DNA from: Candidatus Pacebacteria bacterium GW2011_GWA1_46_10
GTDB taxonomy: Bacteria > Patescibacteriota > Microgenomatia > UBA1400 > PJMF01
Length of the DNA: 64,000 nt
Direction of reading: 5' to 3'
Assembly (NCBI GenBank): GCA_001002135.1
Contig: LCLP01000001.1
Span: 361,114-425,113 of the forward strand
Part shown: in pieces, positions 11,469 to 62,540 of the stretch
Layout of the letters: each line of letters opens with the position of its first letter
Numbering within the stretch: position 1 is the first letter of the stretch
The notes under the pieces: generated by a model
Told to the model about the DNA's origin: nothing
Database searches by the model: none
Seen by the model: only the letters and a program-made list of their open reading frames with translations
Position numbers and translations under genes: made by a program

Positions 11469-12200
11469 TTATAAATATGAGTCAATGACACTTTTTACTT
11501 GCTCAAACGGCAGGGCACCGGAAATGAGCTCGTATTCACCGTCGGCTGTGACCAGGATGGTACCTGGGGTGCCGGTAATACCAGCGGCACTGCCGCCATT
11601 ATAGTCGTCGTTCACTAACTCGGTGGTTTCGCCGTTCTTCAGACAACTGTCAACCGCCGTGGCACTAACACCAACCTGACTGGCGTAACCCAGCAGTTTA
11701 TCTCTAGTTAAAGCTGAACCAGCGTCAACGGCCGCCTTTTCGAACAAGAGATCAGTAAAGGCCCAAAAGGTATCGTCGTCACTGAGTTTAGCCACACACT
11801 CGGATGCCTCGGCGCTGATCTGAGCTTGTGGGTGAATACCCCTGAGCGGAAAATGCCGGTAAACCCAAGCTACTTGGTCGCCATACTCCTCCAGGACTTG
11901 TTGCATGGTGGGATGGAAACGGTTACAAAATGGACACTCATAGTCGGAGTATTCCACCAATTTAATTGGTGCATTGGGGTTGCCACGAAGGTGATCTTCA
12001 GCCGTCACGGCCGGCATTTTTTCTGGAGTAGCTGGCGGTGGGGTTGGTACCCCGGCGGTAGGAGTACTAGTTGTCTTACCGGTAGTGTTGCCCAAACCGC
12101 TCTTGAGGAGTTTATTTTCACTCCACAATGAACCCAAGACAAAGCCGGCAATAAACGCCACAGCGGCCAGGAGAATCTTCATCAAAGTTTTGTTATCCAT
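11469..12200 (-). CDS. DsbA-like thiol:disulfide oxidoreductase (thioredoxin fold, membrane-anchored)
   Basis: CPFC active-site motif inside a thioredoxin fold, with an N-terminal TM/signal anchor. Start placed at MDNK (12200). The track's 12281 start would overlap the divergent prmC start at a CATG palindrome and leave no promoter space. Confidence 0.7.
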   Translation of the reverse strand: MDNKTLMKILLAAVAFIAGFVLGSLWSENKLLKSGLGNTTGKTTSTPTAGVPTPPPATPEKMPAVTAEDHLRGNPNAPIKLVEYSDYECPFCNRFHPTMQQVLEEYGDQVAWVYRHFPLRGIHPQAQISAEASECVAKLSDDDTFWAFTDLLFEKAAVDAGSALTRDKLLGYASQVGVSATAVDSCLKNGETTELVNDDYNGGSAAGITGTPGTILVTADGEYELISGALPFEQVKSVIDSYL

Positions 12201-12267
12201 GAGAGCCTTTCTAGTAGGGACAGTTTGAGTGAGCTTGTTAATGTGGCCAGAGTAACAATTTTTCGCG

Positions 12268-12273
12268 TAAAAT
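12268..12273 (+). promoter_or_regulatory. candidate -10 hexamer (TAAAAT) 6 nt upstream of the prmC ATG with no Shine-Dalgarno sequence, suggesting a leaderless mRNA
   Basis: cgTAAAATacaagcATG. Confidence 0.3.
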
Positions 12274-12279
12274 ACAAGC

Positions 12280-13047
12280 ATGTCAATCCGTCAACTGACT
12301 GCTTATGAAAAAAACCATCTTGTAAAATTTGGCAAGAATCTAGTAGAGATCGACCAGTATGGTGAAATGCCGGTGGAATATATCACCGGCAAAGCGGTCT
12401 TTCTGGGCCAAGTGTTGGCGGTTAGTCCAGCCACTCTGATTCCTAGGGTTGAGACAGAAGAACTGGTGGAAAGGATTCAGGCTGATATTTTGCAAGACCG
12501 TACGAATTGGGAAGGAAAAGAACTGACAGGGGTTGATGTTGGCACCGGCTCTGGGGTGATCGGCGTGACGATGGCACAATTTTTTGAACGCCAACAACTG
12601 CGGTATGACTTAACTATGAGTGATATTTCGTCAGCAGCGCTGGCAGTTGCCAAGGCTAATTTTAACGCCCTTTTACCCTCACCACGGTTCGGCCAAGTTG
12701 AGTTTATATTGAGTGATTTGTTGAAAAGTTTTCCCAGAAAGAAAAAACTTGATTTGATTTTTGCCAACGTGCCGTATATTCCTCGGGAGCGATTAGCTAC
12801 TCTCGATAGTTCGGTCAAGGATTTTGAGCCGTTGATAGCCTTGGATGGGGGCGAGGACGGCTTGCAGTACATTTCGCTGCTTCTAAAGCAGGCTGAAGTA
12901 GCGCTGAGACCTGGCGGGAAAGTCTATTTAGAGGTAGACGATACGCACACCAAGGAAAAATTCCGATCGTTTACCGACAGCTATGGTCTTCACTTACTAC
13001 CTGACCAATTTGGCAAGAATCGTTTTGGTAGCTTTACCCTCAAGTGA
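12280..13047 (+). CDS. prmC: PrmC/HemK-family protein-(glutamine-N5) methyltransferase
   Basis: SAM-binding DVGTGSGVIG motif and the catalytic NVPY (NPPY-type) motif. 255 aa. Confidence 0.7.
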   Translation: MSIRQLTAYEKNHLVKFGKNLVEIDQYGEMPVEYITGKAVFLGQVLAVSPATLIPRVETEELVERIQADILQDRTNWEGKELTGVDVGTGSGVIGVTMAQFFERQQLRYDLTMSDISSAALAVAKANFNALLPSPRFGQVEFILSDLLKSFPRKKKLDLIFANVPYIPRERLATLDSSVKDFEPLIALDGGEDGLQYISLLLKQAEVALRPGGKVYLEVDDTHTKEKFRSFTDSYGLHLLPDQFGKNRFGSFTLK

Positions 13048-19008: not shown

Positions 19009-20562
19009 TTACTCACTCTTCACTAAACTGGTGATATCCCAGACTTGCAAACACGGCGCCCCAGGGATACGGCAATACCAGGCGATGAGAAGAGAGTCCA
19101 AGTAATTTTCATTAAGCTTCATTTCTTCTCGGTGATCATTGACCACCAGCCAGACTTGTTCATAGTGCTGGGCTTTAGCGGTGAAACTGGCTGGAATAGC
19201 GACCACTGGTTGACCAATCCCCTCCACTAAAATGTTGGTCACATCTTGATTATGCAGATACATCAGCATCCCATCAGGCAGAGTGCCAAAAAACCCCTCG
19301 GTCGCCACCGCGATTGAATGAGCTTGTGATTTTTCGAGTAATAAGTCAGTGGCTTCTTTCACGCCAGTGCCTGATGACCACTCACGAACATATTGAGTCT
19401 GATCGATAGAGGTCAGGGGTAGGTAACTGGGATTTTGCCAAGAAATGAAGATAAACTCCAGAGCGGTGGAAAGCACAGCCGTAAGACCTAGCACAATGAA
19501 AGCGGAGCGCATGAAAAATGGGAACGGTTTTTTGATCAGTTTTTGGGTGTGGGCGAAAAACTGACCAAAAGTGAGTGAGGCCGAAACGGTCAGTGGGACA
19601 GCAGCCGGCAAGAAGTAACGTGGATAGATCGTTTTGCCTAGTAAAATAATCGGGGCCAGAAACCCGGCGGCCGACAATAATAAAAGGAGGTGTTTTCGTC
19701 GCCACCGGTCTTGAAAAAGACCACCCAGCGGCAACAGGAAAAACGGCCAGGTGAGATACAGCCCCAGCGCCGCGATCACTGCTCGACTGTTCACCATCAT
19801 CACGCGCCACAATCCCTGCTCCCTCAGTTCGCTTATGGAGTAAAGAAAATCGTTGCCGCGATTAAAAAGCTGACCAAAAGCCGGGTGGAGTTTGAGACTC
19901 AAAAAAACGCCAATGCCAATGAGCAGTGTCGCCGCACCCCAACTCAAAATTGTTGAAAGCGGGATCTTTTTGGTTCGCACCAGGAATGGAGCCAGTAGTA
20001 GGGTGGGTGTAAACAAGAGCGCAGGAATTTTAGTTAATAAGGCTAAACCGAAAAATAAGCCGGCGACGATAATTGATCGCCAAGCCAGTTTTTTGGCGTT
20101 GACGGTATTGAGAACATATAACCAAGACAATGATAAGAAGGCAGTCAACAAGCCATCCATCAATGCCATTCGGTGGTAAAAGTACCAAAATGGCAAAATC
20201 ATGGTGGCGGCCATGGCAATGCCCACAGCTAGGGTTTTGCCACCCAGTTTTTTGACGATTTGACCAGTCAGCCAGACCTGCCCAAAGCCGGCCGCCACCG
20301 AGATCAACCGGCCGGCTGCCAGCGGATCAGCTACCAGTTTGAGGGCGCCGACCGTTAACCAGACAAATAACGGCGTTTTACCGTCGTTGAGAGGAAAAAA
20401 GAGGTATTGTTGCCAGTCGTCGAGAATCAGTTGAGCCCAGCGAATGTAAATGGCTTCATCAGCAAATACCGGCAGTAGGGTGAGCGACGGCAAGTGAAGG
20501 AGGAGGTATCCTCCCAAGAGAGTCAGTAGGCCGATAGCGGAAAGTAGAGCGGTTTTTTTCAC
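19009..20562 (-). CDS. GT-C membrane glycosyltransferase, ArnT/PMT-like (GT39/GT83 family)
   Basis: Polytopic. First-loop motif FADEAIYIRWAQ is typical of polyprenol-phosphate-sugar-dependent GT-C enzymes. A GTG start at 20562 forms a GTGA overlap with the upstream stop; the track's 20649 start would overlap 91 nt. Confidence 0.6.
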   Translation of the reverse strand: MKKTALLSAIGLLTLLGGYLLLHLPSLTLLPVFADEAIYIRWAQLILDDWQQYLFFPLNDGKTPLFVWLTVGALKLVADPLAAGRLISVAAGFGQVWLTGQIVKKLGGKTLAVGIAMAATMILPFWYFYHRMALMDGLLTAFLSLSWLYVLNTVNAKKLAWRSIIVAGLFFGLALLTKIPALLFTPTLLLAPFLVRTKKIPLSTILSWGAATLLIGIGVFLSLKLHPAFGQLFNRGNDFLYSISELREQGLWRVMMVNSRAVIAALGLYLTWPFFLLPLGGLFQDRWRRKHLLLLLSAAGFLAPIILLGKTIYPRYFLPAAVPLTVSASLTFGQFFAHTQKLIKKPFPFFMRSAFIVLGLTAVLSTALEFIFISWQNPSYLPLTSIDQTQYVREWSSGTGVKEATDLLLEKSQAHSIAVATEGFFGTLPDGMLMYLHNQDVTNILVEGIGQPVVAIPASFTAKAQHYEQVWLVVNDHREEMKLNENYLDSLLIAWYCRIPGAPCLQVWDITSLVKSE

Positions 20563-21818
20563 TGCTCTCGATTGTAGCGCACTCTTTGGGTCAGAAACCA
20601 GAGCTGGCTCATCAGCCACAAACCAATCCCACCACCCCAAACGAGCCACTTTTGTTGGGTTAGTACCAACTGAGTGTACTCACCGACCCACAACCAAGGG
20701 ACGTAGCGGAGCATGGCGGTTAATGAAAAAGTAATGAGCCAGTGGCGCCACCATGGCTTTTTAATGAATGGCAGCCAGACCAGTGACCAGAGTAAATACC
20801 AGGGCAGAAACTGTTGTGAACGCAAAGTCAGCAAAGGGAGAAACAACAGGATTGATGACCACCAGCTTAAGCGCTCCCAGCTGAGAGAGTTTCTCAGTTT
20901 TGGTATCACCCGCCGCATCAACACTAAGAGCCAGACCGGGGTAATAACTAGAGTAGCGAATTTGATGAGAGTGGAAAAACCAAAAAGCAGGGAAGAGGCG
21001 AGTAGTTTTGGGGTAGTTTGTTTGGTTGGTTGGTCAAAGAGCAGCCACAGCGCTGCCAGGGCCGGCACCATCATCCAGAGATCGTTGTGCTGATTGGCGA
21101 TGACTTCGATAAAAAGGACAGGATTGAGGAAAACCAACCAGAAAGCGGGTAATGAGAGTGATTTTTTATTGATCGTCAGCGAGATTTTTTGCAGCACCCA
21201 AAATAGTAAAACAATACTTAAAACTGCCCAGCCGCGAAACAGCAACCAAGTCAGTAAGAACGTATTAAAACCAATGGCGTATGGAATCAGTGACAGCGCT
21301 GTCCAGCCATAGCCGTATGGGGCGGGGGTGTGGGTGTTATGCATAAACCGTGTCCAGTTATCGTGGGTGAAGTCGAGTGCCACCTGGACGTGAGGATTAG
21401 CTTGATAAACCAATACCATTTTGGCGTTGAAAATATAGTTAAAAACGTCATGAGAAAGCGCGTTGTAACTGAAAAACAACGGCGAGACGGCCAAAAGATA
21501 CGCAAACAAGAGCTTTTTGGAACTGAGCGACTGGGTGTGGGTAGTCAGTTTCAAACCAAAAAGGTATACAACAAAGAAACCGGTGATGAACAGGACATAA
21601 ACTTGAGTCAGCAGTTCACGCTGGTGAAGAAATGTTTGCCACATCCACTGTTGAAATCGCCAGTATGGCGGCCAACTAATTAAGACGAGATTGGGATCAG
21701 TCAAGGCATACGAAAAAATGGCGTAAAGTAACGAGAGTCCGAACAGAGCTCGCAAAAGCCAGCTGATTTTTTTTTCGCTTGACATATTCAATGGTATTTT
21801 CCCATCAGTCGAGCCCAA
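20559..21818 (-). CDS. polytopic membrane protein (about 12 TM, W/F/Y-rich), family not recognised; probably part of the glycosylation machinery
   Basis: 419 aa with many aromatic-rich TM helices. Sits inside the glycan operon. Family assignment uncertain. Confidence 0.4.
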   Translation of the reverse strand: MGSTDGKIPLNMSSEKKISWLLRALFGLSLLYAIFSYALTDPNLVLISWPPYWRFQQWMWQTFLHQRELLTQVYVLFITGFFVVYLFGLKLTTHTQSLSSKKLLFAYLLAVSPLFFSYNALSHDVFNYIFNAKMVLVYQANPHVQVALDFTHDNWTRFMHNTHTPAPYGYGWTALSLIPYAIGFNTFLLTWLLFRGWAVLSIVLLFWVLQKISLTINKKSLSLPAFWLVFLNPVLFIEVIANQHNDLWMMVPALAALWLLFDQPTKQTTPKLLASSLLFGFSTLIKFATLVITPVWLLVLMRRVIPKLRNSLSWERLSWWSSILLFLPLLTLRSQQFLPWYLLWSLVWLPFIKKPWWRHWLITFSLTAMLRYVPWLWVGEYTQLVLTQQKWLVWGGGIGLWLMSQLWFLTQRVRYNREQ

Positions 21819-22552
21819 CGGATGCGTAAAATATCAATAAACATTCTGACAGAATCTTTGAGTGGATTGACGCGGGTGGTGGCAAAATGGCGCCAGTGAA
21901 TCGGTACCTCTTTGTATGTAAAACCCAATTTTCTGGCTAGAAAAAGCAGTTCAACGTCAAAAGCACCGGTAAAAGCGTCCGGCTGACGGTTCTGGGGGCT
22001 GTAGATATACAGTTTGGGAAACAGCGTTTCGGTCGCTTGGGCTGAGAACATTTTAAAGCCGCACTGAGTGTCTTGCACTCCTCGCACGGCCATGATTTGG
22101 ACAAGTAAATTAAAACCTCTGCCCATCAGGTGACGGTAGAAGGGTTCTTTGTCTCGTTTGGCGCCGGCGATTTCTCGCGAACCAAATATAACCTGGTATT
22201 GATCAGTGTATGGTAATAGTTTCGTTACTTCTTGGATCGGTGTTGACTGATCAAAGTCGGTGTACAACCGCCACTGACCATGGGCGGCCAACATGCCGGC
22301 CGTGACGGCTGGCCCTTTGCCAGCGTGTGAGTTGGTTAAGACAGTTACCTCCGGGTGTTGTTTGGCAAATTGCTGCAGGCTTTCGACCGTCCCATCTGTA
22401 CTGCCGTCATCACTCAAAATCAGTTCCCAAGTGTATGGTTGTTGTTTGAGATACGAAATCAGTTCCTTCAGTACTCCTCGCTCAATATTATGCTGCTCGT
22501 TATAAGAAGGCACGATGACTGATAAAAAAGGGGAATGATCAGCGTCAGGCAT
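21788..22552 (-). CDS. glycosyltransferase family 2
   Basis: LSVIVPSYNEQHNIE...SDDGSTDGT GT-A fold N-terminus; DxD-type region. Confidence 0.75.
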   Translation of the reverse strand: MPDADHSPFLSVIVPSYNEQHNIERGVLKELISYLKQQPYTWELILSDDGSTDGTVESLQQFAKQHPEVTVLTNSHAGKGPAVTAGMLAAHGQWRLYTDFDQSTPIQEVTKLLPYTDQYQVIFGSREIAGAKRDKEPFYRHLMGRGFNLLVQIMAVRGVQDTQCGFKMFSAQATETLFPKLYIYSPQNRQPDAFTGAFDVELLFLARKLGFTYKEVPIHWRHFATTRVNPLKDSVRMFIDILRIRWARLMGKYH

Positions 22553-22557
22553 GGATT

Positions 22558-24144
22558 TTATTCTAGCGCTTGGTCAGTCTCTTGGGTAGTTCTACGCAGC
22601 ACTGTGATAGTTGGGCCGTTTTCGAGAGTAAAGACTTCGGCCGGCTGCTTATTGGGAAAGACCACGATTTCATAGATGGGAAGATCAATGACTTTGGGTG
22701 ATTGTTTTTCTTCGTCAATGATAAAAAGCGTGGTTACTTCATTGCGCTGCTCTGGTGGCACCGGTCGGGTGTGGCCGGTGGTCAGAAAATAGCGGTAGTT
22801 TTGACCGTCAAGATCTTTACTGCCGGACAGGAGCACTAAGTTGTATTTTTCACCTGATTCCACCCGTTTGAGGATTTCCTGACTGGTGTGTTCAATGTCT
22901 TTGATGGTCCAGCCTGTATCTTTAAAAATGAGTTGTGGCCAGTTAAACCGCAGAAAGTAGGCAGTAAAAATAATGAAGGCAACAGCAGCCAGCCACCGCG
23001 GTTTGAGTCGGCTAAAAACATACCCATACACCAGGGCGGTGATCGGGAATAAGTAGGCAATGTAGTGATCAAAGATGGAGTGTTGGTAAAAAGCCGTACC
23101 GACAATGCCAAAACCAAGGTAACTGAGTAAGACGAATTCTTTGGCCAGCGGTTGTTTTTGCTCATGTTTGTTGAGTATGGTTACACAGAAGAGAATGACG
23201 ACAGCCAGTAAAAGTGTTTGATTCAGCACCCGATTTTTACCGATCATGTATTCAAACAGAATGTGTAGGCCGCGTCCCTCGGTTTCTTGCAGTGTTTCAG
23301 TCAACTGTCTGGTGACGCTGGTCTCCCTCAGAGCGGTGAAATTTTCGTTTCCGGTGAACATGGCCTGAAAAGCTCGGAAGTTGACCCCTTGATGTTTAAG
23401 GTCAAATAACACCAGCGGCACGAGCGACAAGAGAAAAATGACCAAACCTATCAGACTGGGTAGCAGGATTGCCTTGAGTTTCCCGGTTGAAAAATGTGTT
23501 CTCAAGCTGATTAACCAAATCAGCCCTGCCGCTGGGAGGGCCAGTAGAGTGAGGTAGTGGAGTTGCAGCAGAATGCTGAAACACCCCGCCACCGCGACCC
23601 AGTATTTAGGGTGTTTTTGCCAGGCAAGGTAGGTGGTGTAGATCATCAGCAGTGAGACGAATGGGGCTGGATTAGGGTTCCAACTGTAGCGGGTGGCATG
23701 CACAATGGTGGCGGCAAAGGTGTAGAAAAAAGTGGCGATCAAGGCCCCGTTCTCGCCGATTAACTTTTTGCCGAGGCTGTACATCAGATAGACAGTGATC
23801 ACTCCTAGAGCAGCCACCGCGTAAGCTGGTCCGACAGGACTAGGATAAGTGAGCCAGAGAAAAGGGAGCATAAAATAGTAGTAGAGTGGTCCCAAGTAGA
23901 GGTTGCCGACACTGGTGACGGGACCGATGAAGACCAGGTCTTTTTGGCGGAAGATATCAGCCACAATGATGGCATCTCGACCTTGGTCACCCAAAAATAG
24001 GACGGTGTTGGTCAAGTTATAAAACCGCAGGTAGACCGCTGCCGCCAACAACAAACCGAGAATAATCAATTTCCCCTGGTTTATTCTCTTCATGGCGTTT
24101 CCGCGTTTACTTTTTCTTTCGCCAAATGAAAGTGGTGTAAGCAA
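22558..24144 (-). CDS. GT-C membrane glycosyltransferase, ArnT/PMT-like
   Basis: 528 aa with about 11 N-terminal TM helices and GDQGRDAIIVADI in the first loop, plus a C-terminal soluble domain. Confidence 0.55.
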   Translation of the reverse strand: MLTPLSFGERKSKRGNAMKRINQGKLIILGLLLAAAVYLRFYNLTNTVLFLGDQGRDAIIVADIFRQKDLVFIGPVTSVGNLYLGPLYYYFMLPFLWLTYPSPVGPAYAVAALGVITVYLMYSLGKKLIGENGALIATFFYTFAATIVHATRYSWNPNPAPFVSLLMIYTTYLAWQKHPKYWVAVAGCFSILLQLHYLTLLALPAAGLIWLISLRTHFSTGKLKAILLPSLIGLVIFLLSLVPLVLFDLKHQGVNFRAFQAMFTGNENFTALRETSVTRQLTETLQETEGRGLHILFEYMIGKNRVLNQTLLLAVVILFCVTILNKHEQKQPLAKEFVLLSYLGFGIVGTAFYQHSIFDHYIAYLFPITALVYGYVFSRLKPRWLAAVAFIIFTAYFLRFNWPQLIFKDTGWTIKDIEHTSQEILKRVESGEKYNLVLLSGSKDLDGQNYRYFLTTGHTRPVPPEQRNEVTTLFIIDEEKQSPKVIDLPIYEIVVFPNKQPAEVFTLENGPTITVLRRTTQETDQALE

Positions 24145-25282
24145 AAAAATTCCAAAACATGCCGATCAAGATTCCCACTACCGCGTACATCATACCGGTG
24201 TCGACTCCAATGGCAATTATTGGCAGGGTGAACAGCGGGAACAAACCAATGAATCGCTCACCGACAAAGGCGATCGACTGTTGGATTAAGATTGAGCCAG
24301 CCGAGGTGAGATTAAACTGAATAAATTTGCTGGGATATTGAATGGGCCTGAGCTTGCGGTCTGAGAATGTCCAGATATTGCTTAAAATGAAATTACTGAG
24401 GATCGCGCACTCAATGGCCAAAAAAAACGCCAGCTGAAACGGAGCGATCTGACGCCAGAGTTGAAGAGTGGTCAGTTGCACTAAAGCGCCGATGCCACCC
24501 ACCACCACGAACTTGAAAACTCGATTTTTAAAAAGATCACTGAGGCGTAATTTCATAATATAGATCAGGTTATTTTTAATGTATTCCGGTCCCATTTTAC
24601 TTTTGCCGTGGGTGCGGTCTTTAAAATGAAATGGCACCTCAACGACTTTAAAACCTTTTTGTAAAGCCGCGTGTAAAAAGCCTATTTGAAAAGTATAGCC
24701 GGAAAACCGCTCACTTGTCAGCTCTGAATGCACGGCCTGGTACACTTTTCGCGTGATCGCCCTAAAGCCACCAGTCCAATCTCTAATACTAAAGTTCAAC
24801 ATGGCGGTGGCGATAAACAGATTGCCCATCACGCTTAAAAATTTGCGATGAAGTCCCCAATCGCTCGGGATGCTGCCGCCGGGAATATAACGTGAGCCAA
24901 GCACCAGGTCATACCCTTGGTCAATTTTTTGCAGAAATAACGGAATTTTAGTGGGATCGTGTGAGAGGTCGGCGTCGAACTCGAAGATCACATCAGCTTT
25001 AAGTTGATCAAAAGCATAGTCCATACCCTTGAGATAGGCTCTGCCCAGACCGGCCTTGGTTTTGTTGAGTAGTAAGTGAAGGTTTTTGTAACGTTTCTGC
25101 AGTTGTTTAACCAGCTTATACGTTCTATCGGGTGAGGTATCGTCAACGATTAAAACCCCACAGCGCCAGTCACGAATAGTGTCAAGTACGCCAAATACTT
25201 GATATAAAAGTCGATCAATATTTTCCCGCTCGTTGTAGGTTGGAATAATGACAATGGCGCTTTTGGGAGAGGAGACTGCCAT
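24107..25282 (-). CDS. polyprenol-phosphate glycosyltransferase (GT2; Ppm1/DPM1/GtrB-like) fused to a C-terminal GtrA-like flippase domain
   Basis: N-terminus IVIIPTYNERENIDRL...VDDTSPDRT and DxD FDADLSHDP, typical of polyprenyl-P-sugar synthases. The C-terminal ~120 aa form four TM helices (GtrA-like). Confidence 0.7.
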   Translation of the reverse strand: MAVSSPKSAIVIIPTYNERENIDRLLYQVFGVLDTIRDWRCGVLIVDDTSPDRTYKLVKQLQKRYKNLHLLLNKTKAGLGRAYLKGMDYAFDQLKADVIFEFDADLSHDPTKIPLFLQKIDQGYDLVLGSRYIPGGSIPSDWGLHRKFLSVMGNLFIATAMLNFSIRDWTGGFRAITRKVYQAVHSELTSERFSGYTFQIGFLHAALQKGFKVVEVPFHFKDRTHGKSKMGPEYIKNNLIYIMKLRLSDLFKNRVFKFVVVGGIGALVQLTTLQLWRQIAPFQLAFFLAIECAILSNFILSNIWTFSDRKLRPIQYPSKFIQFNLTSAGSILIQQSIAFVGERFIGLFPLFTLPIIAIGVDTGMMYAVVGILIGMFWNFFAYTTFIWRKKK

Positions 25283-25295
25283 ATAAGCCTGTTAT

Positions 25296-26276
25296 TTATT
25301 GGCCGTTGCTTTCGCTTTCGTACTGCAACTCAGCCTCGACCATCAGTTTTACCAGGCCTTCAAAGTCAACCGAGGGTTTCCAGCCAAGTTTTTCGCGCGC
25401 CTTAGTGGCATCGCCGCGCAGCATGTCAACTTCGGCCGGGCGATCAAAAATAGGATTGTGTTTATAGACTTTTTTCCAGTCGGTCAGACCAGCCGCGCTG
25501 CAAGCCAATTGGAGGAATTCTTTGACTGAATGAGTTTCGCCGGTGGCGACTACAAAGTCTTCCGGCTGATTTTGTTGAAGCATTAACCACATGGCCTCAA
25601 CGTAATCCTTGGCATAGCCCCAGTCGCGCTTGGCTTCCAAGTTACCCAGTTCAACGTACTTTTGCTTCCCGAGTTTGATGCGTGCTACCCCGTTGGAGAT
25701 TTTACGAGTGACGAACTCCAGGCCACGGCGAGGCGATTCATGGTTAAACAAGATGCCTGAAACAGCAAAAAGATGGTATGACTCGCGGTAATTGACGGTA
25801 ATCCAGTGACCGTACACTTTTGCCACTCCGTAAGGGGAGCGGGGATAGAACGGGGTAGTTTCTTTTTGGGGGGTTTCTTGGACCTTGCCAAACATTTCGC
25901 TGGAACTAGCCTGATAGAACTTAGCTCCAGGACAGGCTAAACGCATCGCTTCCAACACGCGGGTGACACCCAAACCGGTGAATTCACCAGTCAAAACCGG
26001 TTGTTCCCAAGAAGCTTGGACAAATGACTGAGCAGCCAGATTGTAAATCTCATCTGGTTGAATCTCTTTAAGAGCAAAGGTCAGTGAGTTTTGATCCACC
26101 AAATCGCCGGATATCAGGGTAAGGTGGGGGTTGTGGACAATCTGTTTGATGCGATCAAAGTTTTGGGTGCTGGTACGGCGGGTTAAACCATAAACATGGT
26201 AGCCCTTGTCGAGTAAAAGCTCGGCTAAGTACGAACCGTCCTGACCAGTAATGCCGGTAATAAACGCCTTTTTCAT
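25296..26276 (-). CDS. gmd: GDP-mannose 4,6-dehydratase
   Basis: [35 protein letters not shown]...NFDRI is collinear with Gmd. Start ATG 26276 forms an ATGA overlap with the rmd stop; Shine-Dalgarno sequence GAAGGA. Confidence 0.9.
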
Positions 26277-27233: not shown

Positions 27234-28529
27234 TCAACCTCGTCCCAGTCCTTGGTAGTGATACTTGGCTTGTTTTAAAACAGCAGGCTGAAATTGGTTG
27301 CGAGCGTCAATGAACCATTGCTTTTTGTTAAGTTTGGTGCGGGTAAAGTCAAAGCCGGTAATCTGTGGCCATTCGACCAGTGAAATAATCACATCAGCGT
27401 TCTTTACGGCTGAGGGAATATTTTTTTCCTGAGTGTGATTTGGTTCTAGTGCCTTAAGTTGGAAAAACGATTGCCAGGAAGCCATTGGATCAAAACTCTT
27501 CACCTTTGCTCCCTTGTTTAAGAGAAGAGGAATGACTTTGGTGGCCGGTGACTCGCGTAGATCATCGGTGTTGGGTTTGAAAGAGAGACCGAGGACGGCG
27601 ACTGTTTTGTCACTCCACCCACCAACTTTATTTTCTACAGCCTGCATTAATTTCGGAATCCGCTCTTCGTTCAGATCGTCGATTTTATTGAATAAATTAT
27701 TACTCTCGCCGATCGCACGTGAATAAGCGGCTAGTTCTTTGACGTCTTTGGGAAAGCACGACCCGCCGTAGCCAAACCCGGGGTACCAATAGTGCGGGCC
27801 GATGCGGCTGTCAAGACCGATGGCAGCAACGACGTCTTGGACATCAGCCCCGTTTTTTTCACACAGATCCGCGATTTGGTTAATAAAAGTGATGCGGGTA
27901 GCCAGGTACGCGTTGGCAGCATACTTTGCCATTTGGGCCGACTCCGGTTTGATTTTGACGATCGAGGTTTTGAATGGTTGGTGCAGTGTTTCCAACACGG
28001 TAAAAACATGTTGGTCATTGGCTCCAATGACGATCCGATCTGGTTGCAAAGTGTCGTCGACGGCCGAACCCTCTTTCAAAAATTCCGGCAGTGAGGCGGT
28101 GTAGAAATTGACTTTGGTGTGTTGGCCAATGAGTGTCTCAACCTGGTTAAGGGTGCCTGGTGGAACCGTCGACTTGACTGCCACGATGGCATCTTTTTTG
28201 AGGTGTGGCGCAAGCGATTTAATACTGGCAAACACAAACCGGAGGTCGGCCTGACCATCAGGGGCTGACGGTGTACCTACGGCAATCATGATTAGCTGGG
28301 CATTTTTAATCGCAGTTTCGTAATTGGTGGTGAAGTTGAGCTGATTGGCGGCCAGTTGCTGTTGGAGCAGTTCTTCCAGGCCAGGTTCATAGAACGGCAC
28401 TTTCGCTTTTTTGAGGCTGGCGATTTTCTGCTCATCAATGTCCAGACCGATAACTTGGTGACCAAAAGAAGCGTAGACCGCGGCGGTCACAACACCCACA
28501 AAACCTGTACCGATGACAGTGATATTCAT
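27234..28529 (-). CDS. ugd: nucleotide-sugar dehydrogenase (UDP-glucose 6-dehydrogenase family)
   Basis: MNITVIGTGFVGVV Rossmann N-terminus, a GGSCFPKD catalytic Cys motif, and a C-terminal UDP-binding domain. Confidence 0.8.
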   Translation of the reverse strand: MNITVIGTGFVGVVTAAVYASFGHQVIGLDIDEQKIASLKKAKVPFYEPGLEELLQQQLAANQLNFTTNYETAIKNAQLIMIAVGTPSAPDGQADLRFVFASIKSLAPHLKKDAIVAVKSTVPPGTLNQVETLIGQHTKVNFYTASLPEFLKEGSAVDDTLQPDRIVIGANDQHVFTVLETLHQPFKTSIVKIKPESAQMAKYAANAYLATRITFINQIADLCEKNGADVQDVVAAIGLDSRIGPHYWYPGFGYGGSCFPKDVKELAAYSRAIGESNNLFNKIDDLNEERIPKLMQAVENKVGGWSDKTVAVLGLSFKPNTDDLRESPATKVIPLLLNKGAKVKSFDPMASWQSFFQLKALEPNHTQEKNIPSAVKNADVIISLVEWPQITGFDFTRTKLNKKQWFIDARNQFQPAVLKQAKYHYQGLGRG

Positions 28530-33651: not shown

Positions 33652-33711
33652 GCTCTGCCCAGCATTGTAACAAAAACTGATCAGTGCTTGGGTTCTGAGC
33701 CTGAAATAAGC

Positions 33712-37001: not shown

Positions 37002-38569
37002 AACTGCTTATTCGTTTTAGATGGAAGTATTTTGGCTTGATAGGAGTGTTGGGTTTACTGCTCGGAGGTTGGTTTTTTGGTCGGTTTATTGATGAGCAAG
37101 AAAACATGGTCGGCGGTTGGCTGATTGCCCAAGGTTGGGTGATCTACCGTGATTTTTTTCTCCACCACACCCCACTCCCGTACTTTATTTCTTCACTTTT
37201 ATTTATGATTGGCCAACCAATGGGCTGGTGGTGGCGAGCGGTGACACTACTGTATGTCTTGATGGTAGGTAGAGTTATTTGGTCCAATGCTGACCATCAA
37301 CTACAACCATCGATAATTTTAACTGGTTTACTGCTGGGTTTGGCGGCGCCGAGACTGAATCTCAATATGTACTTGGCTGATAGCTTTTTTGCAGTGTCAT
37401 TCTTAGGGAGTGTTATTTTGTTGTGGCAGTATTGGCAGTTTCGGCCAGCGCGCTTTCATTTCACCCTCAAATGGTTGTTGTTTTTCTGGTTTGTCAGTGG
37501 CTGGTCAACGATTGTAGCTGTGCCGCCTTTTTTAGTATTATTGGCGATTTTATTTGGGCTTGAGTACCGACGAAAAAAAAGTTGGCTTACACTGTGGCAG
37601 GCCAGCCGGAAACCACTTGGCTGGTTTCTTGGTTTGGTGAGTATTTTTCCGCTTTATTTCTGGTTGAGCGGGGCACTGAACGATTTTGTTTGGTCGACCG
37701 TAACGTATAACCAGCAATATTACTTCCCGCTCCGCTTGGCAGAAACCGCAGGCGAGCGGCAGTGGGGGGCTTTTTACTACTCGTATCTAAGGTTCGGCTC
37801 ACTGATTATTGAGCAGGGGAGACTTATTTTTCAAACGGCGCTCACTTTTTTACAAACTCTTGGTGGAATGATGTTGGCGGTTAGTTTGATCTTGATAGCT
37901 CAACTCACTCGGTTATTGCTGGTTTGGTTGACCACCCCAGTCACTACCTTGGCGGCTGATGCCTTGACTGTTTTGGCAGTGGGGTGGTGGGCAATAGCGC
38001 TCAGTTTACTTTGGCGTCAAAGGTGGCAACTGCTGTTGGTGATGTTTGTTTTGTCTGGATTGTTGTATATGAGAAATAACGAGGTTTTTCACCTCTCGGT
38101 TTTATTTCTGACCCTTTTTTGGTTGATTAGTTTTTGGTGGGTGAGTAGTTGGCAGCAACGACGGTTACCACGAGTGTTTTTTTGGAGTTTCGTTTTACTG
38201 GTTATTATCACTTACTTTGCACCAAGTTACCTTGAACACGTACGTCATCGTTTCCCGATTATTACTCCAGCCCAACGACAACAGGCTCAGCGAATTAAGA
38301 CCCTTTCTCAGCCTGGGGAAAAGTTGCAAGTAGTTGGTGGCGATTTGACGTACTATTGGCTCAGTAACCGACTGCCAGCAGGGGAGACTATCATTTATTA
38401 TCCTTGGTTCCAGCCGGTCGAGCGAATTCGTCAACCGTTGTTGACGACACTGACGGAACAAACAGCGCAGCTAGTAATTTTGGCAGAGCCGTTTGATCGG
38501 GAACTAGTAGAAATACTCGAAACAAATTATAGTAAGAAAGAGCAGGGGCTATATCAACCTTTAAAATAA
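36998..38569 (+). CDS. polytopic membrane protein, putative GT-C-like glycosyltransferase (family unassigned)
   Basis: 523 aa with many TM helices and a C-terminal soluble tail. Shares an ATGA overlap with the flippase gene. Confidence 0.4.
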   Translation: MKLLIRFRWKYFGLIGVLGLLLGGWFFGRFIDEQENMVGGWLIAQGWVIYRDFFLHHTPLPYFISSLLFMIGQPMGWWWRAVTLLYVLMVGRVIWSNADHQLQPSIILTGLLLGLAAPRLNLNMYLADSFFAVSFLGSVILLWQYWQFRPARFHFTLKWLLFFWFVSGWSTIVAVPPFLVLLAILFGLEYRRKKSWLTLWQASRKPLGWFLGLVSIFPLYFWLSGALNDFVWSTVTYNQQYYFPLRLAETAGERQWGAFYYSYLRFGSLIIEQGRLIFQTALTFLQTLGGMMLAVSLILIAQLTRLLLVWLTTPVTTLAADALTVLAVGWWAIALSLLWRQRWQLLLVMFVLSGLLYMRNNEVFHLSVLFLTLFWLISFWWVSSWQQRRLPRVFFWSFVLLVIITYFAPSYLEHVRHRFPIITPAQRQQAQRIKTLSQPGEKLQVVGGDLTYYWLSNRLPAGETIIYYPWFQPVERIRQPLLTTLTEQTAQLVILAEPFDRELVEILETNYSKKEQGLYQPLK

Positions 38570-39915
38570 TGAAACTGAAAGAAAAGATTTTACTCGTTCT
38601 GATTTTGGCGACAGCGTTTTTCCTGCGGGTGTGGCGTTATTATGATTTTCCGGTGGGTGGGGAGACCGCGGATGAAAGTGCATGGACGCTTTTAGGGGCA
38701 AGCCTGATTCAAGAACGGGTGCCGGCTTCATGGTCTTATTTTTTGCCCTACGAAAATTATCATTATGTGGAAGGGCTGTTTGATGCCCCGATTGTCCGGC
38801 CAGCACTTGACCATCCCCCACTCTTCTCGCTTGTACCGGGAACGGCCCATAGTTTAAAATCATTTTGGTTAGACTCCCCTTCTTTTAAAGTTATTCGCTT
38901 ACCGATGGTGCTACTGGGTACGCTTAATGTTTTGTTATTTTGGTTCGTGGTGAGGCAAATTTTCGCTCAGACAAAGTGGGTGGTCTTGGCTACTGCACTC
39001 TTTGCCACGATACCAACAATTGTTTTTGGCAGTCGGCTGGTAGTGGCCGAAAACTTGCTTATTACTTGGATTTTGTTGGCGATGCTGTTGGTTTTTCGCC
39101 GGCCGACCAAGCAACGAACTCTGTGGTTAGTACTAATCAGTATTGCCGCCGTGCTCACAAAGGTGGCAGGGTTGATCGTGCCTATTTCTTTATTGGTGTA
39201 TGGTTTGCTCACTCGACAAAAAATCGTTGCCCGGACTGGGGTAGTTGGCGGCTTACTTGGTATTGGTTTATTTGCTTTCTATGGGGTGGTGTATAACTGG
39301 CCGCTTTTTGTGGCAGTGGTGGCAATTCAGTCAACCAGAGCATTAGGCTTGGCCACCTTACAAAATCGGTTGTTTCTTAATCCAGTGCTAGTCAAACACA
39401 TTTTTTTCGACGGTTGGCAAGTAATGGGAATCATGGCTGCGGTGGCTTTGCTTTTGCATCGATCAAACGACAAAAAACTGCTGTTAGCTCATATTTTTAC
39501 AGTAGCGTCACTGTTGTTTATTGCTCTCAGCGTGGGTGAAAGTACTTTTCATGGTTGGTATGACTTTGTTTTGTGGCCAAGTTTAATAATCAGTTTAGCC
39601 GGTTTTCTCAAGATACTGTTCGAAACAAGCAATACACTGTTGTTCGGCATCTTCTGGCTAATGACGCTGCCGGTCATGCGCTTGGCGCTCGTTTTCACTG
39701 ACCAGTATGAGCACCTTGCTGGTTGGTTGGTAAGAGTAATGATTGGGTTAGGTTTTTTGCCGCTGTTGTGGCAGACGCTTGACCGACAAAAACTAGTGAG
39801 AATAACTCCTTGGTTGTTATTGATAGGTCTGCTGGGGTTCAACGTGGTGACGATTCTTACCGTCTCGCACGAAGCTTACTGGGTGCAGGCCGCTTTTTTT
39901 GAGTTGCCTTTATAA
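38569..39915 (+). CDS. PMT-like (GT39) protein O-mannosyltransferase-family membrane glycosyltransferase
   Basis: First loop GGETADESAW...LDHPPLFSLV. The DE and HPPL motifs are diagnostic of the PMT/PMT_2 family. About 11 TM helices. Confidence 0.6.
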   Translation: MKLKEKILLVLILATAFFLRVWRYYDFPVGGETADESAWTLLGASLIQERVPASWSYFLPYENYHYVEGLFDAPIVRPALDHPPLFSLVPGTAHSLKSFWLDSPSFKVIRLPMVLLGTLNVLLFWFVVRQIFAQTKWVVLATALFATIPTIVFGSRLVVAENLLITWILLAMLLVFRRPTKQRTLWLVLISIAAVLTKVAGLIVPISLLVYGLLTRQKIVARTGVVGGLLGIGLFAFYGVVYNWPLFVAVVAIQSTRALGLATLQNRLFLNPVLVKHIFFDGWQVMGIMAAVALLLHRSNDKKLLLAHIFTVASLLFIALSVGESTFHGWYDFVLWPSLIISLAGFLKILFETSNTLLFGIFWLMTLPVMRLALVFTDQYEHLAGWLVRVMIGLGFLPLLWQTLDRQKLVRITPWLLLIGLLGFNVVTILTVSHEAYWVQAAFFELPL

Positions 39916-41026
39916 AATGTTTTGATCCCCAGACGCTTAAAATGGCCCAAAATGGCAAAAGTGGAATAAGATACCGAGCATATGAAGCTGAACCAAAAGC
40001 GTAGTAGATCATCATCGCTTGAGCGTACCCGTAGAGGGTGAGAGCGTATTTATTTTGGCGAAAGAGAAAAACTCCGCTCAAAAGTTGCACGACAAACATC
40101 AGTGGCCAACTTAAAGACCAGCCGTAAGCAATTTCGGTCGCGACCGCTGCCCACCACCCCTTGAATTGACCAGTAAAAAGAGTTTGGAAGATCAGAAACT
40201 TTGGTTGGTTCCGACCCTCGATCCACCAGTGAAAACGGAACAGTTCAAACCGGATGAAGTCAAGGGGGTTGGGGTGATGGACAAAGTAAACCAGATAGGT
40301 TGCTAAATAGGTGAGTATGGCTGCCACTGAGCCAACCACAAAAGCCTTTATGTTTCGCTCGCTCAGACTCCACAGCAGCATAATCAGGAAGAATAAGCCA
40401 ACCGTCGGGAATAAATACTTGATACTACTGAGTAAGCCCAGCGTGATGCCCGCCCATAAGTATTTTTTTCGGTGGTTTGAGAACAAACAAGTAAAAAAGC
40501 CGAGAATAGCTACCAGCTGCGGGAAGTCCAAGAGCGGCTCGCTCACGTGATCATGTAGAATAGCCAAGTTGCCGACAATGACCACGGTGATCAGGGCAAA
40601 ATTTGTATCACGGATCACTCTCCAAGCTAAATAGTAAACCATCACTAAAGCAGCAGCGAACAAGACAAGATTGAGGAGAGCCGGATTGCCCGTCAGTAAG
40701 TAAGAGAAGCCAATCCAGTATTTGGCCAGCGGTGGGTGCTCAAAGTTGATGTTGGTGGGATCCTCACCCTTAATGTAGGTGTACCCGGCGTAGGTGTATA
40801 AAGTGGCGTCATCTATTTTGTTGCGCGCCGCTTCGCCGCGCACATACTGTGACCGGCTGTACTGACGACCCTCAAACTCAATCATGGTTGGTGAAAAGAA
40901 TTTTTGTGGATGCTTCAGGATTGGCACTGCTGTTAAAACCAAGACAAATAACCACAGTATTTTGGGAAATGATTTGAGAGCCTTTGACATGAGTGTAGTT
41001 TTGGCCTGTGAAGCACCAATTGTCAA
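39857..41026 (-). CDS. PMT-like (GT39/PMT_2) membrane glycosyltransferase
   Basis: DDATLYTYAGYTYIKGEDPTNINFEHPPLAKYWIGFSY is a classic PMT_2 loop-1 motif. Polytopic. Confidence 0.6.
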   Translation of the reverse strand: MTIGASQAKTTLMSKALKSFPKILWLFVLVLTAVPILKHPQKFFSPTMIEFEGRQYSRSQYVRGEAARNKIDDATLYTYAGYTYIKGEDPTNINFEHPPLAKYWIGFSYLLTGNPALLNLVLFAAALVMVYYLAWRVIRDTNFALITVVIVGNLAILHDHVSEPLLDFPQLVAILGFFTCLFSNHRKKYLWAGITLGLLSSIKYLFPTVGLFFLIMLLWSLSERNIKAFVVGSVAAILTYLATYLVYFVHHPNPLDFIRFELFRFHWWIEGRNQPKFLIFQTLFTGQFKGWWAAVATEIAYGWSLSWPLMFVVQLLSGVFLFRQNKYALTLYGYAQAMMIYYAFGSASYARYLIPLLPFWAILSVWGSKHFIKATQKKRPAPSKLRARR

Positions 41027-61523: not shown

Positions 61524-62207
61524 ATGGCGGCCAAATCCATACTTTTCTCTAAGACCTGGATTGTCATTCCTGGTTTTAACGAAGCCAAGTATTTAGCCAC
61601 TGTCCTCAAGAAAACCCTCAAGCAAACGCCGCGGATTATTTATGTCGATGATGGTTCGCATGATCACTCGGCTCAAATCGCTCAAAAATATCTTGAACAC
61701 GTCATCATCCACGAAGTCAATCTTGGGAAAGGCGCGGCGCTCAAGACTGGCTGCGACTATGCTTTTAACTTCCTCAAGGCTCAAGCAGTCATTCTAATGG
61801 ACGCGGACGACCAGCATAATCCAGCCGAGATTCCACTGTTTGTCCAACAACTCAGGAAAGGCAGTCAAGTAGTATTGGGTGCCCGGTCGCTGTTTTCCAA
61901 AATGCCCTTAGTCCGTAAAATCGGTAATGCTTTCACCTCGGCGGTGATGCTAATCTTGTTTTGGCGTTATATTCCGGATATTTTGTCCGGCTATAAGGCT
62001 TTTACGAGGCGCGCGTACCGCAAACTTTACTGGGAGGCGACCGACTACAGTGTGGAACTGGAGATCGCTGCCAAAATCGCCATGAATCGGTTACAATTCT
62101 CCTTAGTGAGCATCAAAACGATTTATCACGATCTGGATCGAGGGATGAGTATTATTGATGCGATCAAAGTAGCACTAAAAATCGTGAGTCTCAGATTGGG
62201 ATTATGA
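61524..62207 (+). CDS. polyprenol-phosphate glycosyltransferase (GT2, GtrB/ArnC-like)
   Basis: IVIPGFNEAKYLATVLKKTL...YVDDGSHDHS...MDADDQHNP; a short (227 aa) GtrB-type GT2. Confidence 0.7.
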   Translation: MAAKSILFSKTWIVIPGFNEAKYLATVLKKTLKQTPRIIYVDDGSHDHSAQIAQKYLEHVIIHEVNLGKGAALKTGCDYAFNFLKAQAVILMDADDQHNPAEIPLFVQQLRKGSQVVLGARSLFSKMPLVRKIGNAFTSAVMLILFWRYIPDILSGYKAFTRRAYRKLYWEATDYSVELEIAAKIAMNRLQFSLVSIKTIYHDLDRGMSIIDAIKVALKIVSLRLGL

Positions 62208-62536
62208 GTATTTTTCAAATCATTGCCGTTTTTTTTGCGCTGCTGATGCTCTATATCACTCGCGTGCACACCTTGCGTCAGCGTTTCTCCATGACCGAAA
62301 CCTTTTTTTGGTACTCGTTGTGGTTAGTGTTCATAGTGGTGGCGGTTTTCCCGGATTTACTGCGCGGCATCAGTGACTTATTGCACTTCTCCCGCGTGTT
62401 TGACTTGTTGGTGGTAGGAGCGTTAATGGTGTTAACGGTGGTGGTGGTGCTTAATTATTTCCAGCAGCGAGCCAATGGTCGTAAGTGGGAAGAATTTATT
62501 CGTCAGCGCGCGATCGACCACACCAAAAAGAAGTAA
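62204..62536 (+). CDS. DUF2304-like small membrane protein (partner of the GT2 just upstream)
   Basis: 110 aa with three TM helices (MSIFQIIAVFFALLMLYITRV...). ATGA overlap with the preceding GT2. Confidence 0.45.
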   Translation: MSIFQIIAVFFALLMLYITRVHTLRQRFSMTETFFWYSLWLVFIVVAVFPDLLRGISDLLHFSRVFDLLVVGALMVLTVVVVLNYFQQRANGRKWEEFIRQRAIDHTKKK

Positions 62537-62540
62537 AGAG

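Follow-up and report, generated by a model that had tools for sequence, protein, structure and literature searches.

The window analysed here, a stretch of 64,000 nucleotides (64 kb) from contig LCLP01000001.1 of Candidatus Pacebacteria bacterium GW2011_GWA1_46_10, carries at 24107..25282 a gene for a two-domain glycosyltransferase, called the synthase below, which lies within a tightly packed block of co-directional genes. A single unbroken open reading frame (ORF) of 391 amino acids fills exactly these coordinates, and its parts, with positions counted from the first letter of the window, are as follows.

24107..25282, minus strand: synthase, 391 amino acids, predicted to load a hexose (probably mannose) onto polyprenyl phosphate, with a GtrA/DPMS-type transmembrane (TM) domain in the same chain
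24737..25252, minus strand: GT2 (GT-A fold) catalytic domain, PF00535, synthase residues 11-182
24122..24514, minus strand: GtrA/DPMS-type four-helix membrane domain, PF04138, synthase residues 257-387

Pfam placed PF00535 (Glycos_transf_2) at residues 11-182 with an E-value of 1.4e-26, far over the curated cut-off, and PF04138 (GtrA_DPMS_TM) at residues 257-387 with an E-value of 4.8e-16; the latter match spans model positions 1-117 of 117 and scores 59.5 bits against a cut-off of 26.1, so that the protein belongs to the GtrA family by profile. An AlphaFold2 model built with 42 homologues (mean predicted local distance difference test score, pLDDT, 87.6) consists of a catalytic domain of the GT-A fold, an amphipathic helix at the interface (232-252) and a further helix (144-161), and four C-terminal membrane helices (254-276, 282-305, 313-344, which is kinked, and 362-386), with a beta-hairpin (349-361) in the interval between TM3 and TM4. 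A sequence-only reading of this DNA had taken the gene for a DPM1/Ppm1/GtrB-class polyprenyl-phosphate sugar synthase ending in four GtrA-like TM helices, and had proposed checking the two Pfam domain boundaries and the topology. Both domains were found, the full-length PF04138 match and the modelled helices agree on the C-terminal part, and the assigned class is borne out by PF00535 together with fold matches to the dolichyl-phosphate mannose synthase (DPMS) of Pyrococcus furiosus (PfDPMS), ArnC and GtrB.

Conservation is high in both domains. DAD103-105, H108, SRY130-132, R146 and S150 are invariant in the 42 homologues, and invariant polar residues also lie inside the TM helices (Q269, E291, N297, N302, Q322, N324, Q334 and N378). 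Mean identity is 70% for the TM domain against 68% for the catalytic domain, and this conservation, together with the many invariant intrahelical polar residues, argues for a function of the membrane domain beyond anchoring. The hairpin region (24202-24252, residues 345-361) is predicted, with a pLDDT of about 85-93, to be inserted on the outer face where TM3 passes into TM4; P354, D361 and T362 are conserved in this region, and about 13 residues just past the hairpin (361-373) are unmatched against PfDPMS in a MAFFT alignment.

Among solved structures, PfDPMS is the closest relative by sequence (5mlz, E 4.2e-42, residues 9-367, including the membrane domain), with ArnC (1e-13) and GtrB (1e-10) as the other matches, and a Foldseek search with the model likewise returned PfDPMS first (5mlz, 9ep0 and 5mm1, about 2e-23, 387 aligned columns), then ArnC and GtrB. 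Residue roles reported for PfDPMS (PMC5526996) were mapped onto the synthase through a phmmer and a MAFFT alignment. Kept in the synthase are the guanosine-binding residues Y10, D39, G68 and L69, which make the guanine and ribose contacts; the acceptor-loop lock of E12, R202 and K208; D89-A-D91, of which Asp89 contacts mannose O2; His94, which contacts mannose O3 and is Asp in GtrB; F177; and the lipid-phosphate residues S116-R117-Y118, R131 and S135 (R131, R146 and S150 in the synthase), which are invariant.

Type-III DPMS enzymes have been defined by the motif DADxQHPP (x = L/F/Y), by SRY, R131, S135 and K178, and by N248, N277 and F338 in the TM pocket, and were described as confined to hyperthermophilic archaea (Gandini et al., 2026; PMC12992685). 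The synthase has the corresponding architecture, in which one chain runs from a GT2 domain into a GtrA-like TM domain of four helices, and departs from this definition in its residues: the motif reads DADLSHDP (Q93 is S107 and P95 is D109); SRY, R131 and S135 are kept and K178 is lost; and in the pocket N277 is kept as N297, N248 is Q269 and F338 is M375. PfDPMS R341 corresponds to N378, and an Asn occupies the R341 position in every type-III enzyme outside Thermococcales (PMC12992685). The pocket positions N277, R341 and N248 are, on this mapping, either retained or replaced conservatively. Alignment of TM4 with PfDPMS is less certain, phmmer and MAFFT disagreeing there, and the TM4 segment, searched by itself against the PDB for the sake of the Phe338/Arg341 alignment, found nothing. 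Overall, the catalytic domain belongs with the general DPM1/Ppm1 type, and the membrane domain with the PfDPMS ('type III') type. What the synthase shares with PfDPMS (5MLZ, 5MM0, 5MM1, 9EP0) is a single chain that joins a GT2 domain, interface helices and, at its C-terminus, four helices of GtrA-like type, together with DAD, His94, SRY, R131, S135, E12, R202, K208 and N277. The synthase differs in the substitutions just listed (DADLSHDP, the loss of K178, Gln for N248, Met for F338), in the extra TM3/TM4 beta-hairpin, in coming from a bacterial lineage of non-thermal groundwater, and in its presumed acceptor, undecaprenyl phosphate rather than dolichyl phosphate. Four homologues from Patescibacteria of the Shapirobacteria type (L035, L039, L041 and L053) carry DADFQHPP together with K178, N248, N277 and Asn341, and depart from the type-III set solely at F338 (Leu or Ile) and SRY (SRK).

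A public record named 'MAG: Glycosyltransferase [Candidatus Pacebacteria bacterium GW2011_GWB1_47_8]' (MAG, metagenome-assembled genome; contigs up to 574 kb) matches the synthase at 100% identity, and the lineage within the Candidate Phyla Radiation (CPR) that the sequence-only reading had suggested is right. It is not a chance feature, because more than 6,500 homologues were found at E<=1e-10. The best 120 of these are 63-94% identical and all have the PF00535 plus PF04138 architecture; their named sources are all Patescibacteria, Pacebacteria or Microgenomates, and many are labelled 'dolichol-phosphate mannosyltransferase' by JGI. The notion that a CPR genome would be an unexpected place for such a gene does not survive these numbers, and from homology the synthase is an ordinary, widely conserved enzyme that is not unusual for the lineage. 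Short, catalytic-only homologues (230-270 amino acids, about 40% identity) occur in Actinobacteria, Bacteroidota, Acidobacteriota and others, and the signature DAD[LF]SH.P plus GY.FQ is common to the synthase and these short DPM1/Ppm1-like bacterial homologues. Eukaryotic DPM1 has DADLSHHP and GYVFQ, which is background here and was not used as evidence. One short homologue, from Microbacterium (L070), was considered as a Ppm1 orthologue, which an Lnt/Ppm2 gene beside it would have supported; a GH8-sortase protein is encoded there instead, and orthology was not established.

Eight closely spaced genes run in one direction here, in the order Ugd, Rmd, Gmd, synthase, GT-C, GT2, MptA/B-like GT-C and GT-C, with the synthase in fourth place. 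The other seven are listed below in the order of transcription.

27234..28529, minus strand: UDP-glucose 6-dehydrogenase-type nucleotide-sugar dehydrogenase (Ugd), first in the block, with three UDPG_MGDP_dh Pfam domains and TIGR03026 at 426 bits
26273..27232, minus strand: GDP-4-keto-6-deoxy-D-mannose reductase (Rmd-type), matching PDB 2pk3 at 3.7e-53 and 6x3b at 1.5e-37
25296..26276, minus strand: GDP-mannose 4,6-dehydratase (Gmd), 326 amino acids, TIGR01472 equivalog at 442 bits against a cut-off of 415, PF16363 at 2e-134
22558..24093, minus strand: GT-C glycosyltransferase (PMT_2), 511 amino acids, starting 13 nucleotides past the synthase stop
21788..22552, minus strand: GT2 without a membrane domain, 254 amino acids, PF00535 at 1.1e-23, syntenic
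20559..21785, minus strand: polytopic GT-C assigned to the MptA_B family, 408 amino acids, from a precomputed PF26314 match on an identical protein
19009..20649, minus strand: GT-C (PMT_2) with loop-1 DE64-65, last in the block, PF13231 at 7.4e-10

Gaps of 13 nucleotides flank the synthase on both sides, between the Gmd end and the synthase start and between the synthase stop and the GT-C at 22558. The true start of the last GT-C probably lies downstream of 20649, and the Rmd-type reductase scores just 77 bits against Fcl, where the cut-off is 500. Promoter- and terminator-like sites between 18 and 33.8 kb did not exceed the expectation from shuffled sequence, which is compatible with an operon and otherwise uninformative.

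Synteny was assessed with one genome per species by comparing every ORF of 80 returned loci with the window proteins, and the counts refer to the 52 loci with a full-length fused synthase homologue. A GT-C like that at 22558 lies immediately downstream of the synthase in 32 of the 52 loci; the GT-C, GT2 and MptA/B-like genes are all present in 33, and the last GT-C (19009-like) additionally in 29. A Gmd- or Rmd-like gene immediately precedes the synthase in 30/52, with Ugd just before it. This order persists down to 41% synthase identity, in Pace-, Woese-, Gottesman-, Collier- and Beckwithbacteria-type genomes, and the LCP ligase, RmlB, RmlD and divergent TrmD genes upstream of the operon are also syntenic. 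Gottesmanbacteria-type loci retain a single Gmd/Rmd-like short-chain dehydrogenase/reductase (SDR) upstream of the synthase, and in three loci (L036, L039 and L041) the synthase stays linked to the GT-C block without the Gmd link. Ten loci with the complete Microgenomates-type operon and 41-63% synthase identity (L009, L013-L015, L018, L026, L028, L033, L036 and L038) are titled 'uncultured Pseudomonadales' or 'uncultured Gammaproteobacteria' (MAG TPA_asm); these labels are probably wrong.

The co-directional genes directly downstream are the likelier partners of the synthase. The sequence-only reading had looked instead to the genes at 38569 and 39857, which are 13-15 kb off and in other transcription units. 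Most likely to use the lipid-linked sugar is the GT-C at 22558, which has an invariant G35-D-Q-G-R-D40 (GDQGRD) and no loop-1 DE. Searches of PDB sequences with it, as a single sequence and as a 44-sequence profile, gave nothing usable. Its model (pLDDT 85.8) has a GT-C_A fold with a C-terminal soluble domain, and Foldseek ranked ArnT first (7e-7, TM-score 0.58, full length), with Pmt entries at ranks 22-32; two fold-search methods disagree, however, so that a protein, lipid or glycan acceptor is not assignable by fold. The 254-amino-acid GT2 that follows (21788..22552) is 26% identical to the synthase (E 9e-15), and its NCBIfam matches, all under threshold, are PgfS, ArnC, AglJ and dolichyl-phosphate hexose transferase; by these similarities it may be another polyprenyl-phosphate hexose synthase, or else a glycosyltransferase acting on lipid intermediates. 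For the MptA/B-like protein at 20559..21785 a PDB relative was sought and none was found. The MptA_B family comprises polyprenyl-phosphate-mannose-dependent mannan elongases of Actinobacteria.

With respect to sugar supply, the 'GDP-mannose pathway genes' of the sequence-only reading are indeed linked to GDP-mannose, but Gmd and Rmd use it up, yielding GDP-D-rhamnose. No ManB or ManC gene was found in the 64-kb window; the neighbouring Gmd implies that GDP-mannose is available in the cell.

From the conserved residues and the gene order, we favour, with some reserve, the reading that the synthase is the donor-making, and probably also the donor-flipping, part of a three-component extracytoplasmic glycosylation system. 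The sugar that it loads would be mannose, a better than even assignment, and the polyprenyl carrier is presumably undecaprenyl phosphate. On the cytoplasmic face, the GT2 domain would move a hexose, most likely from GDP-mannose, onto polyprenyl phosphate to give Und-P-mannose (undecaprenyl-phosphate-mannose), a step proposed because of the homology and the conserved active-site residues. The GtrA/DPMS-type four-helix domain would hold the lipid and may aid the headgroup in crossing the membrane, as proposed for PfDPMS. Outside the membrane, the co-transcribed ArnT/PMT-fold, MptA/B-family and third PMT_2 GT-Cs would extend or decorate an envelope glycan with this donor, and the surrounding locus would assemble the glycan (Wzx, GT2/GT4, dTDP-rhamnose and GDP-D-rhamnose genes) and anchor it through the LCP ligase. 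Some of the GT-C enzymes of the locus could glycosylate proteins.

The fused synthase-GtrA protein and the GT-C 13 nucleotides downstream fit the described framework (PMC11127046), in which a lipid-sugar synthase is combined with a component of GtrA type and a GT-C. As in GtrA/GtrB/GtrC (O-antigen glucosylation in Shigella and Salmonella), CsbB-GtcA-YfhO and GacI-GacJ-GacL, a synthase, a GtrA-family component and a GT-C occur together; unlike in those systems, the first two are fused, several GT-Cs would share the donor, and the catalytic domain is DPM1-like (1e-10 to GtrB). Actinobacterial Ppm1 follows the same logic, a cytoplasmic GT2 making polyprenyl-phosphate-mannose for several GT-Cs (Pmt, MptA, MptB and PimE), and the likeness extends to the motifs DAD[LF]SH.P and GY.FQ, common to short actinobacterial homologues, and to one operon partner assigned to the MptA_B family; Ppm1 differs, however, in having no GtrA-like domain and in being soluble or fused to or paired with the Lnt-like Ppm2, and the window differs in having no Pmt (PF02366 plus PMT_4TMC) at the curated cut-off. 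ArnC/ArnT(/ArnE-F) offers the same succession of a GT2 lipid-sugar synthase and a PMT_2 GT-C, and the GT-C at 22558 aligns with ArnT over its full length, including the C-terminal soluble domain (Foldseek, TM-score 0.58); in contrast, the synthase is distant from ArnC (1e-13), and the GT-C has GDQGRD in place of the ArnT loop-1 DE. We know of no lipid A in CPR bacteria, and the acceptor must therefore differ from that of the ArnT pathway.

Several points weigh against this reading. The donor site is altered relative to PfDPMS, where Q93 corresponds to S107 and K178, the mannose O4/O6 contact, to Q199 (MAFFT) or T197 (phmmer). The genes upstream make GDP-D-rhamnose and UDP-glucuronate, both alternative candidate donors. 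The MptA_B label of 20559..21785 comes from a precomputed PF26314 match, unflagged, and local copies of Pfam and NCBIfam gave no match. The proposed gating residue Phe338 is Met in the synthase. Flipping by the TM domain is a crystallographic proposal even for PfDPMS (PMC12992685), and the case for GtrA translocation is likewise indirect (PMC11127046).

The alternative that fares best concerns the membrane domain, which might be a mere membrane anchor or lipid platform, with translocation left to a separate protein or unassisted; we regard this as possible, though not probable. Catalysis by PfDPMS survives deletion or swapping of its TM domain, and flipping of the product was just proposed, from a crystal with inverted Dol-P-Man (dolichyl-phosphate-mannose) (PMC12992685). 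The gating Phe338 is Met375 here, and other candidate transporters lie in the locus, namely Wzx at 35499 and further polytopic proteins. Against a plain anchor stand the many invariant polar residues in the TM helices and a conservation that equals that of the catalytic domain and exceeds what an anchor needs, along with the full-length match to the GtrA family, members of which are genetically tied to the export of lipid-linked sugars (PMC7389260). A stand-alone GtrA-family gene, moreover, was not found among the window ORFs scanned.

The second alternative, unlikely in our estimation, is closest to the sequence-only reading: that polyprenyl-phosphate-mannose from the synthase serves a Pmt-like GT-C (38569, 39857 or another PMT_2 protein), which O-mannosylates Ser/Thr-rich proteins of the membrane or the exterior in the manner of actinobacterial Ppm1 and Pmt. 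The two genes named are as follows.

38569..39915, plus strand: GT-C of the PMT/PMT_2 clan, 448 amino acids, with D35-E36 and D81-H-P-P84 invariant
39857..41026, minus strand: short polytopic protein of about 370 amino acids, a distant member of the PMT/ArnT clan, with DD72-73 and EHPPLAKY96-103

The 38569 protein matches PMT_2 (7e-9) and has DE35-36 and HPPL82-85, both invariant across 39 homologues; 28 of these 39 relatives match PF02366 (PMT) at E<=0.01, and the protein itself scores 17.5 bits against the cut-off of 22.7. PDB sequences, searched with it singly and as a profile, gave nothing. The 39857 protein has no Pfam match of its own and found nothing usable in a single-sequence PDB search; in its family the first Asp of DD72-73 (numbered 73 in alignment A5) is invariant and EHPPLGKY nearly so, 8/40 relatives match PMT or PMT_2 at E<=0.01, and the family profile weakly matches yeast Pmt2 (8.4e-4) over ArnT (0.053), with EHPPLGKY aligned to HPPLGKM. 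The DE and HPPL motifs claimed for both by the sequence-only reading are thus present in 38569, whereas 39857 has HPPL and a DD instead of DE. From these motifs and family matches both are real GT-C enzymes of the PMT/ArnT clan.

Their identity as protein O-mannosyltransferases, which 'PMT-type' had implied, is another matter. PF02366 at its cut-off of 22.7 bits is reached by no GT-C of the window (the best are 54442 with 20.6 bits and 38569 with 17.5 bits, and the others give no match), and PMT_4TMC (PF16192) was found neither in the window GT-Cs nor in members of the 38569 and 39857 families. A loop-1 DE/DxD Asp occurs in most GT-C enzymes, as the study of MtPMT describes (PMC12331936), so that the presence of DE, offered earlier as the test, does not discriminate PMT from ArnT-type enzymes; DE/HPPL is common to most GT-Cs (PMC12331936) and ArnT, which carries 'EKPP' in its match to the 39857 family profile. 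In addition, 38569 closes an operon 13 kb away, after a YfhO-like gene, Wzx and a membrane protein, and among the syntenic partners of the synthase are an MptA_B-like glycan elongase and a GT-C that lacks DE. Scanning all window ORFs for Ser/Thr-rich segments returned, apart from spurious ORFs, just the Thr/Pro-rich linker of a DsbA-like protein, and no convincing acceptor. That DsbA-like protein, of thioredoxin fold and exported (11469-12281, minus strand), has the linker TTGKTTSTPTAGVPTPPPAT after its N-terminal hydrophobic segment, the sole plausible O-glycosylation-type acceptor sequence found in the window. It speaks for O-mannosylation, as do the invariant DE and DHPP of the 38569 family, the preference of the 39857 profile for Pmt2, and the best NCBIfam match of the synthase, PgfS of streptococcal protein glycosylation, which is far under its cut-off. 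In Actinobacteria, one pool of polyprenyl-phosphate-mannose feeds Pmt and lipomannan enzymes alike (PMC5882110, PMC3485146).

Quite unlikely is a third alternative, in which the donor sugar is not mannose and D-rhamnose from the Gmd-Rmd product GDP-D-rhamnose, or a Ugd-derived sugar, is loaded to give a lipid-linked 6-deoxyhexose or uronic-acid donor. The genomic context is in its favour, with the upstream Gmd/Rmd-like gene and Ugd in 30/52 genomes and the single SDR kept in Gottesmanbacteria-type loci, but the synthase/GT-C link outlives the Gmd link in L036, L039 and L041. At the active site the O4/O6 contact K178 is not conserved, whereas Asp89 and His94, the O2 and O3 contacts of mannose, and the guanine-binding residues are; identical motif variants occur, moreover, in short DPM1/Ppm1-like enzymes not linked to Gmd/Rmd. 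Related GT2s do load varied sugars (ArnC, GtrB, PpgS, GacI), but the synthase is much nearer to the proven mannose enzyme than to ArnC or GtrB. We know of no described polyprenyl-phosphate-rhamnose synthase, which we also count against a donor other than mannose. Very unlikely is the fuller version, in which the synthase would use GDP-D-rhamnose and itself flip the resulting polyprenyl-phosphate-D-rhamnose, which the three co-operonic GT-Cs would polymerise into a D-rhamnan-type wall polymer; if true, this would be a lipid-linked 6-deoxyhexose donor of a kind not described so far, and the polymer would be conserved across Microgenomates.

The reading of the synthase as the donor-making part of an envelope glycosylation system is placed in its wider setting by the flanking genes, which encode an LCP ligase, Wzx, RmlB/D, two YfhO/PTPS-related proteins, about ten GT2/GT4 proteins and more PMT_2 proteins. 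The locus is a cell-envelope glycopolymer region, and it speaks for glycopolymer assembly no less strongly than for protein glycosylation. The window is rich in GT-C enzymes of the kind that use lipid-linked donors: nine or more GT-C genes with Pfam support lie within 45 kb, a density very high for a CPR genome. Between 19009 and 60571, Pfam supports six PMT_2 proteins (19009, 22558, 38569, 47677, 52778 and 54442), the MptA_B-like protein at 20559 and the YfhO/PTPS-related proteins at 33688 and 57813; for as many as five other polytopic proteins (36998, 39857, 42208, 49275 and 59360) Pfam gives no match, although several of these have a loop-1 DE, and the housekeeping genes TrmD and ArgRS are embedded among the GT-C genes of this span. 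Farther on, a 227-amino-acid GT2 (61524-62207) overlaps by 4 nucleotides a 110-amino-acid DUF2304 membrane protein (62204-62536; PF10066, 2.6e-15), and another GT2 (62475-63344) follows. We take the GT2/DUF2304 pair to resemble the streptococcal GacI/GacJ undecaprenyl-phosphate-GlcNAc synthase pair, and 61524-63344 may be a second lipid-sugar donor system of the locus.

Homologues outside the Microgenomates-type operon show other arrangements. Cultured Legionellaceae (Legionella and Fluoribacter; L047, L048, L052 and L055-L057) have a fused GT2-GtrA synthase of 35-38% identity, followed by a PMT_2 GT-C of roughly 500 amino acids (2.3e-37); a polysaccharide deacetylase comes next in L057, and a 287-amino-acid ORF in L048 matches it in size and position. 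By analogy, the Legionella trio resembles ArnC/ArnT/ArnD and suggests a system for the modification of lipid A or the envelope, and the pairing in Legionella implies that the module of fused synthase and GT-C is general among bacteria. Two proteins of roughly 700 amino acids from Patescibacteria/Paceibacter (L054 and L058) have a DPM1-like GT2 fused to a second, processive-type GT2 domain (Glyco_tranf_2_3 / Glyco_trans_2_3), without a GtrA-like domain. In Candidatus Woesearchaeota (DPANN; L059 and L061), homologues are 40-45% identical to the CPR catalytic domain and have the signature DAD[FL]SHNP / GYAFQ, a similarity that hints at exchange or common ancestry of envelope-glycosylation genes between CPR and DPANN.

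The fused architecture itself is already known, being catalogued in Pfam and solved in an archaeal structure; the three-component logic is textbook, and the protein has long been public. Mildly new, as far as sequence comparison goes, are the conserved eight-gene Microgenomates operon and the large bacterial 'type-III'-like family, neither of which was described in any paper found in the literature; a search on CPR or Patescibacteria with O-mannosylation, mannosyltransferase or GtrA likewise found no paper on this system. For the deposited protein, the bare annotation 'glycosyltransferase' can be sharpened to a lipid-sugar synthase of DPM1/Ppm1 type, fused to a GtrA/DPMS domain and encoded in a conserved envelope-glycan operon. 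For the family, a large bacterial group with type-III-like architecture and the polar-pocket Asn could provide mesophilic enzymes usable for testing the proposed self-flipping mechanism. CPR/Microgenomates cells are largely uncultivated and probably host-associated. That their genomes, of about 1 Mb, give a large syntenic block to glycosylation with lipid-linked donors bears on how these cells build their surfaces.

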